DNA of 4,025 bases, from positions 1 to 4,025 of the IMG/VR virus record IMGVR_UViG_2585427756_000014; one strand, given 5' to 3'. The position numbers were made by a program, and so were the translations under genes. The notes beneath the pieces are model-generated. The model had not been told where the DNA came from and searched no databases. It saw only the letters and a program-made list of their open reading frames with translations. Shown here in pieces: positions 1-4,025 of this stretch (within the stretch, counting starts at the first letter, position 1; every line of letters starts with the position of its first letter). This DNA is from a virus. Lineage: Duplodnaviria > Heunggongvirae > Uroviricota > Caudoviricetes.

Positions 1-541
1 TCCCTTCGCGCTGGCTGAAGTTTTCGCGGTAAGTGATCGCCTCCTGCACTGTCTTGCAGCCATACGCTGACAGGTAAGCAAATCCACGCAGGCTTTGCGC
101 CACGCTCAGCAACTCAGTAGCTACCGCCTTGGTGTCGTGGCCTGGCACGCCGAGAATGCGCGGTTTAACGCCGAGCTGTGACTGGGCAGATAACAGGGCT
201 TTCATACCTGTTTTTTTACCTTCAGCAGTCACTGCGCCGATGATATTGGTCGTGGTTTCGTCTTCCGTTTCACCCTGCGGCACACGCACAACAATGGTCA
301 CGGGTTTTGCCTGGTCAGCGATGGCATCCAGCGAACGGGCCAGCGTACCGGACTCCCCCGCTTTACCGCTGGCAGTCAGCACATCAGTGATCAGCACGGG
401 TTTATTAAGAGGAAACATTTTTGCATCGGCATCATCGCCCGTGCAGACCATACCCACGATGGCGGTGCTCACCGTGGTAATGGATCGGGTGCCTTCGTTG
501 ATTTCAACAACGCGCACCCCGTGGTGGTAATCCTGAGCCAT
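1..541 (-). CDS. Contractile phage tail sheath protein (P2 gpFI-like), N-terminal 180 codons; partial, continues beyond window start
   Basis: Minus-strand frame from ATG at 539-541 is open to position 1. Translation begins [35 protein letters not shown]..., which closely matches my recollection of the P2 FI sheath N-terminus (MSDYHHGVQVLEINEGTR...). AGGAGG lies 9 nt upstream of the ATG. The plus-strand ORF 129-530 is antisense to it. Confidence 0.85.
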
Positions 542-683: not shown

Positions 684-1250
684 TCAGGGGGATTCACTGC
701 TCTTATTTGCCGGAAATTTTCTATAAATGGTAGAAACGCCCACATCAAAAATCAGTGCAATACGCTGTCTTGATTCTCCGGCCTCGAGTAAACGTCCAAT
801 CTGTGCCCACTGTTCGGTGGTCAACTTAGGACGGCGTCCACCTACTCTGCCTTTGGCACGAGCTGCAGCCAGCCCTGCCCTGGTTCGTTCAACTATCAGT
901 TCGCGTTCCATTTCAGCCAGAGCCCCCATGACATGAAAAAAGAAACGGCCCATTGGGGTACTGGTATCAATACTGTCAGTCAGGCTTCGGAAATTCACAC
1001 CACGCTGGCGCAACTCTTCTATCAGCGTAACAAGATGCCGCATACTGCGACCCAGTCTGTCCAGCTTCCAGACAACCAGCGTGTCTCCTGCCGATAGTGT
1101 CCTGAGCAGTTTTTTAAGCCCCGGTCTGTCGGACTTAGTGCCACTGATTTTGTCCTCAAAAATCCGGTCACATCCCGCGCAGTTCAGTGCATTACGTTGC
1201 AAATCGGTGTTCTGGTCATTTGTTGACACGCGTACATAGCCAATAAGCAT
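684..1250 (-). CDS. Serine DNA invertase, Hin/Gin/Pin/Cin family (copy 1 of 2, identical to copy 2)
   Basis: Translation MLIGYVRVSTNDQNTDLQRNAL...DTLVVWKLDRLGRSM...MGRFFFHVMGALAEMERELIVERT...GGRRPKL...IFDVGVSTIYRKF contains the resolvase/invertase catalytic domain with the serine in the YVRVST motif and a C-terminal helix-turn-helix. The longest ORF extends to 1295 ([15 protein letters not shown]...), but the family-typical start is the MLIGY methionine at 1250, preceded by a GGGGG Shine-Dalgarno-like run. Confidence 0.9.
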   Translation of the reverse strand: MLIGYVRVSTNDQNTDLQRNALNCAGCDRIFEDKISGTKSDRPGLKKLLRTLSAGDTLVVWKLDRLGRSMRHLVTLIEELRQRGVNFRSLTDSIDTSTPMGRFFFHVMGALAEMERELIVERTRAGLAAARAKGRVGGRRPKLTTEQWAQIGRLLEAGESRQRIALIFDVGVSTIYRKFPANKSSESP

Positions 1251-1277: not shown

Positions 1278-1850
1278 ATGATGCCAGTTAGCCATTATCT
1301 CTGCATTTTCATAAACGTTGGTTTGGGAGAAGGTGCTCCAGCTATTGGCGTTCCGTTCTTCTGGCCGTCCGCCGCAATGCCAAATACTGTAATCGACAGT
1401 TGGTCCAGTATGGTGTTTTTGAAGTTCAACGGCGCGAAATTCTCTGCCACTGATTACCCTGTGCTGGCGAAAGTGTTTCCGGCGCTAGCATTACCTGACG
1501 CACGGGGTGATTTCATTCGTATCTGGGATGATGGGCGCGGGATTGATGTCGGACGTACCCTACTTTCAGGGCAATCACACACAATTATGGATCATGCACA
1601 CAATATGGAGTTGTGGACGGGGGACGGGCTTGCCGCAGGAAGTGCACGGGAGGGAGTAAACCCAGGAATACTGGCCACATACGGTGACGGGGGAATAGTT
1701 AAAACGGACGAACCCGGTCTTAAGGTGCCTTCCTCACTACGAGCTCTTAGCTCTCGTAGTGTTAAACGTTATGGTGAAATTAGTGGAAATGTAGATACAG
1801 AAACCCGTCCACGAAATATTGCATTTAACTTTCTGGTGAGGGCTAAATAA
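1278..1850 (+). CDS. Tail-fibre C-terminal variable (receptor-binding) cassette A, 190 aa; orphan, lacking the constant N-terminal shaft region
   Basis: The ORF crosses the crossover site and ends ...GNVDTETRPRNIAFNFLVRAK, resembling the C-terminal motif of Mu S / P2 H-type tail fibres. Its stop overlaps the start of the downstream chaperone gene. An in-frame stop lies 4 codons upstream of the first ATG, and that ATG sits antisense to the invertase 5' end, so no N-terminal constant domain is attached. Confidence 0.65.
   Translation: MMPVSHYLCIFINVGLGEGAPAIGVPFFWPSAAMPNTVIDSWSSMVFLKFNGAKFSATDYPVLAKVFPALALPDARGDFIRIWDDGRGIDVGRTLLSGQSHTIMDHAHNMELWTGDGLAAGSAREGVNPGILATYGDGGIVKTDEPGLKVPSSLRALSSRSVKRYGEISGNVDTETRPRNIAFNFLVRAK
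1306..1331. other. Left 26-bp crossover site, gix/hix/cix-like (invertase recombination site)
   Basis: The sequence ttttcataaacg-tt-ggtttgggagaa has two imperfect inverted 12-bp half-sites around a central dinucleotide. The right half matches my recollection of gixL in 10 of 12 positions. The site straddles the repeat/unique boundary and lies in the tail-fibre reading frame (encodes CIFINVGL). Confidence 0.55.
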
Positions 1851-2443
1851 TGAAACCTGTTTTTGATGAAAATGGGCTGGCTACAGTGCCGGGCGATATG
1901 CGTTGTTTTTATTATAATGCAGTAACGTATGAATATACCGGCTGGTCTGATGAATATATTAATACTGGCGTAAGTATACCCGCCTGTTCCACTGGTATTG
2001 ACCCGGGCGAAAACATTCCGGGAAAAGTGGCAGTATTTACGGGTAAGGGATGGAGCCATGAAGAAGACCATCGCAATGAGACCGTTTACTCAACTGAAAA
2101 TGGCGCAGCTGTTACAGTGGATTATATCGGTGCCATCAAAGACGGTTATGTCACGCTTTCACCGTTAACGCCATACGATAAATGGGATGGTGAGAAATGG
2201 GTGACGGATACCGAGGCACAGCATAGCGCCGCAGTAGAAGCGGCAGAAGCACAGCGCCAGTCGCTGATTGATGCTGCAATGGCTTCCATCAGTCTGATTC
2301 AACTGAAATTACAGGCTGGGCGGAAGCTGACGCAGCCAGAAAACACCCGACTTAACGCTGTGCTGGATTACATTGACGCGGTGACGGCAACAGATACCAG
2401 CACAGCGCCGGACGTCATCTGGCCTGAACTGCCGGAGGCGTAG
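1850..2443 (+). CDS. Tail-fibre assembly chaperone A (Tfa / Mu U / P2 G family), 197 aa
   Basis: Translation MKPVFDENGLATVPGDMRCFYYNAVTYEY...DKWDGEKWVTDTEAQ...LDYIDAVTATDTSTAPDVIWPELPEA has the N-terminal and C-terminal motifs (DTSTAPD-IEWP-like) of lambda Tfa-type assembly proteins. It is translationally coupled to cassette A. Confidence 0.85.
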   Translation: MKPVFDENGLATVPGDMRCFYYNAVTYEYTGWSDEYINTGVSIPACSTGIDPGENIPGKVAVFTGKGWSHEEDHRNETVYSTENGAAVTVDYIGAIKDGYVTLSPLTPYDKWDGEKWVTDTEAQHSAAVEAAEAQRQSLIDAAMASISLIQLKLQAGRKLTQPENTRLNAVLDYIDAVTATDTSTAPDVIWPELPEA

Positions 2444-2855
2444 GCCATTCAATATCTGGCGCACCGGAAGTATCGACCAGTTCCAGTGCGTCCAGATAAT
2501 CCAGCCACAAATTATATTGCGCCAGTTCCTCACCTTTCAGCCGGCCAATAGCCGCTTTACCAGGCCATTGTTTACTGTTCATATAATCGTTGGCCTGATT
2601 AATCAGTTGCTGCTTTTCCAGTTCGGCTGCAGCAATCTGTTCCTCATGTGTTGGTGGTGGAATTTCAGACCATGCAGGAAAACCATTTTCTCCAGCGATA
2701 CGGATTTTTCCTTTCGGCGGTAATCCGGAAAACTCAATATACACTTGCTCATCAACTTCAACAGCATCATCTGGCCATGAGTCAGCTTGAGTGTAATCCT
2801 CTTTCATCTCCAGCGGATAGAAAGAGTTTGTAGTCGCGGAATATATGTAATTCAT
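2415..2855 (-). CDS. Tail-fibre assembly chaperone B (Tfa family), 146 aa
   Basis: Translation MNYIYSATTNSFYPLEMKEDYTQ...NLWLDYLDALELVDTSGAPDIEWPTPPAVQAR carries the conserved Tfa C-terminal motif. GGAG lies about 6 nt upstream of the ATG. Its 3' end overlaps the convergent chaperone A gene by 29 bp. Confidence 0.85.
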   Translation of the reverse strand: MNYIYSATTNSFYPLEMKEDYTQADSWPDDAVEVDEQVYIEFSGLPPKGKIRIAGENGFPAWSEIPPPTHEEQIAAAELEKQQLINQANDYMNSKQWPGKAAIGRLKGEELAQYNLWLDYLDALELVDTSGAPDIEWPTPPAVQAR

Positions 2856-2876: not shown

Positions 2877-3269
2877 TTAACAGCCTAACGCTAAAAATGA
2901 AGCGCCGAGGCCAGGAGTACTGGCTCTGGATATAAATTTAACCGGGTCGGGACTAAAACCTGCACAGGCAATATAACCAACAGCCCCGCTATCTGGTGTG
3001 TAGTCTTGTGAGACCAAAACACGCAGACATCTGTTTGGAAATGCAATCGGGAAATGGGTTACTACATCCTGTGCAATGCCTGGTGCGCCGATTGAGCCCC
3101 ACTGAAGAATAAAACCTGATGGTAATTTTTGATATCCAGTACCTGAAACAGAAAGCGTGAAGCTACCCATATCAGGTATCTGATTCGCCCCTGTCCCTAC
3201 ATTCCTTTTAGCCGCTTTTCCCAAACCAACGTTTATGAAAATGCAGAGATAATGGCTAACTGGCATCAT
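2877..3269 (-). CDS. Tail-fibre C-terminal variable cassette B, 130 aa; orphan, lacking the constant N-terminal region
   Basis: It shares the first 17 codons ([17 protein letters not shown], encoded by the repeat and crossover site) with cassette A, then diverges completely ([15 protein letters not shown]...[17 protein letters not shown]...). It lies immediately upstream of chaperone B on the same strand. The tail-fibre tip assignment is by context and composition, not by a strong motif. Confidence 0.6.
3216..3241. other. Right 26-bp crossover site, gix/hix/cix-like
   Basis: This is the mirror image of the left site. The outer half-site is identical, and the inner half-site differs at one position (ggtttgggaAaa versus ggtttgggaGaa on the other side). 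Coordinates are +/-2 bp. Confidence 0.5.
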
Positions 3270-3296
3270 CTCCGGTTTTTATTCAGGGGGATGCTC

Positions 3297-3863
3297 ATGC
3301 TTATTGGCTATGTACGCGTGTCAACAAATGACCAGAACACCGATTTGCAACGTAATGCACTGAACTGCGCGGGATGTGACCGGATTTTTGAGGACAAAAT
3401 CAGTGGCACTAAGTCCGACAGACCGGGGCTTAAAAAACTGCTCAGGACACTATCGGCAGGAGACACGCTGGTTGTCTGGAAGCTGGACAGACTGGGTCGC
3501 AGTATGCGGCATCTTGTTACGCTGATAGAAGAGTTGCGCCAGCGTGGTGTGAATTTCCGAAGCCTGACTGACAGTATTGATACCAGTACCCCAATGGGCC
3601 GTTTCTTTTTTCATGTCATGGGGGCTCTGGCTGAAATGGAACGCGAACTGATAGTTGAACGAACCAGGGCAGGGCTGGCTGCAGCTCGTGCCAAAGGCAG
3701 AGTAGGTGGACGCCGTCCTAAGTTGACCACCGAACAGTGGGCACAGATTGGACGTTTACTCGAGGCCGGAGAATCAAGACAGCGTATTGCACTGATTTTT
3801 GATGTGGGCGTTTCTACCATTTATAGAAAATTTCCGGCAAATAAGAGCAGTGAATCCCCCTGA
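3297..3863 (+). CDS. Serine DNA invertase, Hin/Gin/Pin/Cin family (copy 2 of 2, identical to copy 1)
   Basis: Same 188-aa product as copy 1 (MLIGYVRVSTNDQ...). The longest ORF starts at 3252. This copy is on the plus strand, reading away from the invertible segment toward the sheath gene, as in P2-like prophages where the invertase occupies the slot between tail-fibre and sheath genes. Confidence 0.9.
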   Translation: MLIGYVRVSTNDQNTDLQRNALNCAGCDRIFEDKISGTKSDRPGLKKLLRTLSAGDTLVVWKLDRLGRSMRHLVTLIEELRQRGVNFRSLTDSIDTSTPMGRFFFHVMGALAEMERELIVERTRAGLAAARAKGRVGGRRPKLTTEQWAQIGRLLEAGESRQRIALIFDVGVSTIYRKFPANKSSESP

Positions 3864-3911
3864 ATCAGCATAATTTTGATTATCCCTGCAAGTAGACAAA
3901 TACCGTCATTT

Positions 3912-3929
3912 TGTGTGAATAACTGTACA
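3912..3929 (+). promoter_or_regulatory. TGT-N12-ACA dyad, candidate P2-type late-promoter activator site (mirror copy)
   Basis: The sequence tgtgtgaataactgtaca has its centre about 85 bp upstream of the sheath ATG at 4006. It lies in the pin-sheath intergenic region. Confidence 0.4.
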
Positions 3930-4005
3930 ACTACACTTAGCTGTTTGTCGGGCACAATCACTTCAACATAGGGCGAAGCCTAATCCAATCAGGAGGTTCG
4001 CCGCT

Positions 4006-4025
4006 ATGGCTCAGGATTACCACCA
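4006..4025 (+). CDS. Start of a second tail sheath (FI-like) gene copy; only the first 7 codons (MAQDYHH) fall in the window
   Basis: Identical by inverted-repeat symmetry to the first 20 nt of the minus-strand sheath gene at 522-541. AGGAGG lies 9 nt upstream. It is too short to judge on its own. Confidence 0.5.

Follow-up and report, generated by a model that had tools for sequence, protein, structure and literature searches.

Tail-fibre switching by Pin/Gin-type invertases at 26-bp crossover sites is already known, including its occurrence in P2-like prophages of Escherichia coli, and the sequence of the site is in the literature. In the Mu G segment, recombined by Gin at gix sites with a GA centre, the constant part of the fibre is followed by a site, the gene pairs Sv-U and U'-Sv', a second site and the invertase gene, with 67 bp between the segment boundary and gin. 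The C segment of P1, recombined by the Din-family invertase Cin at cix sites with an AA centre, holds genuine long inverted repeats (∼0.6 kb) within the segment. The e14 P segment carries two opposed cassette and chaperone pairs beside the invertase gene pinE, and its sites pixR and pixL are included in a published table of Din-family sites (PMC3241671). E. coli EC958 segments Phi1, Phi2 and Phi4 combine 26-bp sites, lengths of 2–3 kb and high-frequency switching in culture; a prophage fibre segment took its alternative orientation in ∼50% of reads, spurious contigs were bounded by the 26-bp crossover sites, and the authors caution about artefactual duplications in phage regions (PMC4134206). 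Reads likewise revealed mixed orientations of e14 in K-12, where PCR confirmed them, and of P2-like prophages in EPEC (PMC4272514).

The stretch of DNA analysed here (the window; 4,025 nt) is the complete draft contig JOSN01000169.1 (assembly GCA_000713735.1), and probably represents a P2-like prophage with Pin/Gin-type sites, whose invertase flank was duplicated by an assembly fold-back from mixed segment orientations. It resembles e14 in its left site, which is pixR at every position, in the same two opposed cassette and chaperone pairs beside an invertase, and in protein sequence: the 197-aa chaperone of cassette A is unchanged in an e14-like element, and the invertase is identical to e14-type Pin at 155/188 residues. 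The host, in contrast to e14, is a P2-like prophage with sheath, tube and tape-measure genes downstream of the invertase, and its P2-like relatives have GGTATGCGAGAA as the outer half of the fibre-side site where pixL has GGTTTTCGAGAG, the window itself being without a fibre-side site. Mu shares the order of parts and nearly the same spacing (68 bp here), but gix matches at only 16–17 of the 26 positions and the cassette sequences are unrelated. The P1 sites share the AA centre and match at 18–19/26; the long repeat here, unlike that of P1, lies outside the segment, consists of invertase flank and is duplicated in no normal locus. EC958 Phi2 has an invertase-side site (...ATAAACGTT GGTTTGGGGGAA) close to those of the window, whereas the alternative orientations in EC958 were recovered as separate long-read contigs and not, as here, as a fold-back inside one short contig.

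Crossover sites and the segment between them

The left site (1306–1331, minus strand) has the top-strand sequence TTTTCATAAACG TT GGTTTGGGAGAA, with its central dinucleotide at 1318–1319, and reads on the minus strand as TTCTCCCAAACC AA CGTTTATGAAAA; the right site (3216–3241, plus strand; central dinucleotide 3228–3229) is TTTTCCCAAACC AA CGTTTATGAAAA, the reverse complement of the left but for one base. An earlier note on this DNA had placed a mirror pair of Hin-family sites here, and its coordinates, sequence and family assignment all hold. Both are composed of two imperfect 12-bp half-sites in inverted orientation around a 2-bp core, as Din-family sites are, and both have the AA/TT centre of hix, cix and pix, meeting the need for matching centres if exchanged ends are to be religated. 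The published pixR of e14 is TTCTCCCAAACC AA CGTTTATGAAAA, with which the reverse complement of the left site agrees at 26/26 positions and the right site at 25/26, the single change being T for C at position 3, so that alignment to known sites, as the note had proposed, places both in the pix subgroup as invertase-side sites, with the lower matches to cix and gix given above.

A position matrix was built from 11 published Din-family sites (hix, gix, cix, mix, bix), with pix and nix deliberately left out. It ranks the left site first in the window (28.2 bits) and the right site second (25.4 bits), both inside the range of the published sites (20.5–35.4 bits) and above all 200 dinucleotide shuffles, whose best matches had a mean of 7.7, a standard deviation of 2.9 and a maximum of 21.6 bits; a fortuitous resemblance to Hin-family sites is ruled out by this test. 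That the sites are instead relics beside a frozen, non-inverting cassette could be argued from the one departure of the right site from pixR, yet the invertase reading frame is intact, with catalytic-domain and helix-turn-helix matches, both orientations of the segment are common among genomes, and the contig links one flank to both segment ends; we consider relic or chance sites extremely improbable. Judged by sequence, the two 26-bp elements are genuine, previously published crossover sites (pixR) of a Pin/Gin-type invertase in a P2-like E. coli prophage.

A pixL-type fibre-side site (TTCTCCCAAACC AA GGTTTTCGAGAG) is absent from the window. Matrix scanning of related loci found the fibre-side outer half GGTATGCGAGAA in P2-like prophages and the true pixL half GGTTTTCGAGAG in e14-like and Mu-like loci, the invertase-side outer half of normal loci being CGTTTA[AT]GAAAA; the fibre-side site of the P2-like relatives is a pixL variant that works with the same invertase-side site.

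The sites enclose a 1.9-kb segment of two opposed fibre C-terminal cassettes and two chaperone genes. Cassette A (1320–1850, plus strand) runs for 176 codons past the site centre, has no N-terminal constant part in the window and no Pfam match, and is followed by its 197-aa tail-fibre assembly chaperone gene (1850–2443, plus strand; Pfam Caudo_TAP, E = 1e-27). Cassette B (2877–3227, minus strand) runs for 116 codons past the site centre and matches Pfam Gp53-like_C (E = 4e-15), and its 146-aa chaperone (2415–2855, minus strand) again matches Caudo_TAP (E = 8e-38); the two chaperone genes converge and overlap by 29 nt. Searches against NCBIfam gave below-cutoff matches only for the invertase and none for the fibre parts. 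To the right of the segment lies the gene for a 188-aa serine DNA invertase (3297–3863, plus strand), the copy that is joined to the remaining prophage in a sister contig, followed by the first 30 nt of a sheath gene (3996–4025, plus strand; the mirror of 522–551), truncated by the contig end. To the left lie a second invertase copy (684–1250, minus strand), base-for-base identical to the first, and the first 180 codons of a P2-type tail sheath gene, FI (1–541, minus strand; Pfam Gp18_domIII_N and Phage_sheath_1), truncated by the other contig end; its product occurs in this cut form in only two sister assemblies.

Prophages of P2-like, Mu-like and e14-like type all encode the exact 197-aa chaperone protein of cassette A, in either orientation and in each of them between a fibre gene and a single invertase, and the cassette module passes among unrelated phage backbones. 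The two convergent chaperone genes carry, at their 3' ends, an 18-nt imperfect inverted repeat (83%; 2362–2379 and 2488–2505), which reflects homology, through the shared C-terminal motif LDYIDA/LDYLDA, and is no structural element.

The inverted repeat and the natural locus

Position x of one arm pairs with 4547 − x of the other, and identity is exact between 522–1328 and 3219–4025, so reaching the final base of the window; the '100%, 522–1337' (816 bp) returned by the repeat tool is a rounded extension, exact identity stopping at 1328. A sister assembly (GCA_000713695.1) has the same structure at the end of the 213,870-nt contig JOSM01000180.1, with arms identical over 1,328 nt (zero mismatches). 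There, the extra arm stops at the first base of the contig, and the other arm goes on into the rest of the prophage, its sheath gene complete at 390 aa and the right site (3216–3241) running on unbroken into the 210-kb remainder. The two contigs begin at exactly the same base. Over the 4,025 nt they differ once, by A/C at 1978, a synonymous change (ATA/ATC, Ile) in the cassette A chaperone gene; either the sister isolates truly differ by this SNP, or the consensus has blended in another copy of this widely shared gene.

Related complete genomes have a different layout, in which the constant region of fibre gene H is followed by the fibre-side site, cassette A with its chaperone, the opposed chaperone and cassette B, the invertase-side site, the invertase and the tail sheath. 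CP119006 reads sheath, invertase, site, cassette A, two chaperones, a full-length fibre gene ending in cassette B, and P2 baseplate genes; in CP035882 the segment between fibre gene H and the invertase is reversed relative to CP119006, with cassette A fused in frame to a P2-type H. Both arms with these sequences occur in 0 of 5,426 complete E. coli genomes, and matches to the whole window in complete genomes end at query positions 3229–3232 or begin at 1313–1318, which are the site centres. The inverted repeat of normal loci amounts to ∼11 exact bp with partial half-site matches (roughly 20 bp, imperfect). Whereas the earlier note implied that sites at the repeat/unique junctions were the natural architecture, a normal locus pairs a fibre-side with an invertase-side site; duplication of the invertase flank has given the window a pair of the invertase-side type, and it lacks the fibre constant region.

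A long inverted repeat natural to the element, of 816 bp or more, would allow homologous recombination anywhere along it or site-specific exchange at its inner edge, and a perfect long repeat is indeed present in the contig. An entire invertase gene and the beginning of the sheath gene, however, lie in each arm, and both fibre cassettes would be left without an N-terminus; no complete genome or phage record duplicates these sequences, the arm matches in phage records stopping at query position 1332, and normal loci carry only the short imperfect repeat. We regard such a natural repeat as very improbable.

Queries of 300 nt spanning each junction recovered all four combinations of flank and cassette among the 5,426 complete genomes: invertase to cassette A (TTTTCATAAACG TT GGTTTGGGAGAA) in 251, invertase to cassette B (TTTTCATAAACG TT GGTTTGGGAAAA) in 186, fibre H to cassette A (TTCTCGCATACC TT GGTTTGGGAGAA) in 35 and fibre H to cassette B (TTCTCGCATACC TT GGTTTGGGAGAA) in 48. 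They vary only outside a common TT GGTTTGGGA core. The outer half tracks the flank and the sequence past 1328 tracks the cassette, so the switch is bounded to 1318–1328, an interval that includes the central dinucleotide and sets the resolution of the exchange point, short of the 2-bp centre itself. The earlier note had suggested looking in reads for both orientations joined at the sites; these junctions are the genome-level counterpart of that check, the switch falling within the same interval throughout. As for other Din-family systems, both orientations are joined at the sites across complete genomes, which supports inversion through them, and the proposal that inversion exchanges the fibre C-terminal domains is borne out by the four junction types.

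Two further features of the window had been put forward in the earlier note. Identity between the two sides does continue ∼10 bp inward, the first mismatch lying at 1329, 9–10 bp inside the central TT (1318–1319), but what it marks is the conserved inner half-site bound by the invertase and not a signature of exchange. The peptide CIFINVGL is likewise encoded in both cassette frames, the ORFs 1278–1850 (plus strand) and 3269–2877 (minus strand) sharing the same 17 N-terminal residues, CIFINVGL included; as a fibre peptide it fails, since CIFINV is what the non-coding invertase leader gives when its opposite strand is translated. Across the junction, the fibre peptide actually read in frame is ...GKDVAGLLAYLGLGE(G/A)A... 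(LLAYLGLGE), which has only GLGE in common with the CIFINVGL context. A site inside the fibre reading frame is accordingly a property of the related complete genomes, where one site lies in frame within the fibre constant part and LLAYLGLGE is read across it, and not of the window, where the cassettes abut invertase leader; we attribute the missing in-frame fusion to the contig and not to the element. The striking features of the window, namely a long repeat that stops exactly at the site and a common peptide in both frames, are products of the duplicated flank.

The fold-back would have arisen as follows. By analogy with the family, in which inversion depends on Fis and a supercoiled substrate, invertase dimers would bind both 26-bp sites and cut each at the central AA/TT with a 2-nt stagger, before rotation and rejoining; the 1.9-kb segment would then flip, joining the constant fibre N-terminus in frame (LLAYLGLGE) to cassette A or B, each with its own chaperone gene next to it. 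In reads from a culture holding both orientations, either end of the segment would be found next to the invertase flank, and an assembler entering from that flank could have left by it again, a course that the published cases from EC958, K-12 and EPEC make plausible, as does the frequency of assembly breaks described below. We infer mixed orientation in the sequenced isolate from the one flank joined to both segment ends, and, on the fold-back reading, the contig is an indirect sign that the segment inverts in this isolate, with joints at the site. The left-arm invertase (684–1250) is judged a duplicated flank and not a second gene because the repeat is exact (522–1328 and 3219–4025) and no complete genome has both arms with these sequences. 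A PacBio hairpin-adapter artefact was considered and rejected, since the fold is no simple hairpin: between the arms lies a unique loop of 1.9 kb whose limits are exactly the two sites.

A third draft assembly has the same rare cassette B variant on the contig JNQN01000132.1 (3,229 nt), which ends within the cassette A chaperone gene and is a further case of assemblies breaking up at the invertible segment. Such breaks are frequent: in 301 of the 854 index blocks that carry the cassette A chaperone, the longest contig is shorter than 2 kb. The window is ordinary biology in an odd contig, of little biological significance, and counsels caution: a perfect long inverted repeat at a contig end, with a recombinase gene in each arm, should be taken in the first place as the trace that active inversion of a segment leaves in a draft assembly, and ORFs that begin in a flank of this kind and extend into a cassette do not represent real proteins.

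Double-invertase loci in closed genomes

Two observations run counter to a fold-back: the identical first base of the two sister contigs resembles a fixed assembly-graph boundary more than a random stop, and real double-invertase loci are present in closed genomes. The layout of the window would itself be real if exchange between two prophage copies, either of a fibre-side with an invertase-side site or homologous within the segments, had inverted the DNA between them, leaving one segment with two invertase–sheath arms and, elsewhere in the genome, one with two fibre genes; a true repeat boundary would also suit the identical left end of the sister assemblies.

Exactly such a reciprocal structure is found in CP182374, where a ∼95-kb chromosomal inversion between two different P2-like prophages has its end points in the invertible fibre segments and splits both prophages. 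At 2,236,721–2,239,848 two P2-like right halves stand head to head, with invertase–sheath arms on both sides and two invertase-side sites, and ∼95 kb away, at 2,140,639–2,144,399, two left halves are joined, with full-length fibre genes on both sides and two fibre-side sites. The gene pflA adjoins the integrase end of one prophage and pflB its ogr end, the pflA-to-ybjL block lying between them in what we take to be an inverted orientation relative to the K-12 map. The inversion is reciprocal and ends within both segments; with 1,058 nt common to the two at 98% identity, it is compatible with exchange between pix sites as well as with homologous exchange. CP070071 (129,686–132,867) likewise has a segment between two invertase genes, one side being a P2-like right half and the opposite side pinE with the ssrA/smpB-side flank of a different prophage.

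Against a real double-invertase layout in the window, the arms of the closed-genome loci come from different prophages, their outer half-sites differ (CGTTTAAGAAAA as against CGTTTATGAAAA) and their mean identity to the window invertase is 89%, whereas the arms here are identical at 1,328/1,328 positions and would require two copies of one sequence; both source assemblies are, moreover, short-read-era drafts with the extra arm at a contig end. The layout is also rare. An arm–spacer–arm search of 1,351 genomes with a similar invertase returned CP182374 only and missed CP070071, seen by eye, whose second invertase is more divergent, so that its count is a lower bound and not a frequency. The reciprocal double-fibre search (H-constant arm, random spacer, reversed arm) gave no place with both arms among 1,360 matching genomes, and missed the reciprocal locus of CP182374, which was found by walking the annotation and whose second fibre gene is probably too divergent for megablast. 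We hold exchange between two prophage copies to be an unlikely account of the window, and it is doubtful, a little more so, that a double-invertase layout produced by exchange between the invertible segments of two copies is a real chromosome structure in this lineage. Were it true, the window would, together with CP182374, indicate that tail-fibre inversion systems occasionally act between prophages, rearranging the chromosome and inactivating both phages reversibly as they do so; if general, exchange between prophages through these segments would be of moderate interest for studies of genome plasticity and prophage domestication.

The invertase and its control region

The invertase has the make-up of a Din-family recombinase, at ∼190 aa with an N-terminal catalytic domain (Pfam Resolvase, E = 3e-53) and a C-terminal helix-turn-helix (HTH_7, E = 1e-15). 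Its alignment to the solved Gin structures (3uj3/4m6f, E = 3e-92) covers the full length and includes the N-terminal YVRVST motif, and 138/188 residues (73%) are identical to Mu Gin, a lower figure than that for e14-type Pin. Its start lies 68 bp from the site centre.

In Din-family systems a Fis-bound enhancer lies in cis in the 5' part of the invertase gene. Scanning for two G-N13-C cores at a strict 48-bp spacing gave no match here; since 58% of shuffles yield such a pair, the scan does not discriminate. G-N13-C 15-mers are present at nt 22 and 71 of the gene, at the same codons that they occupy in Mu gin, which coding constraint would explain. Between the site and the invertase start, a sigma-70 promoter scan gave no match, and a terminator-like hairpin with a T run, a consensus match only, lies on the invertase strand at 3258–3277 (mirror 1270–1289).
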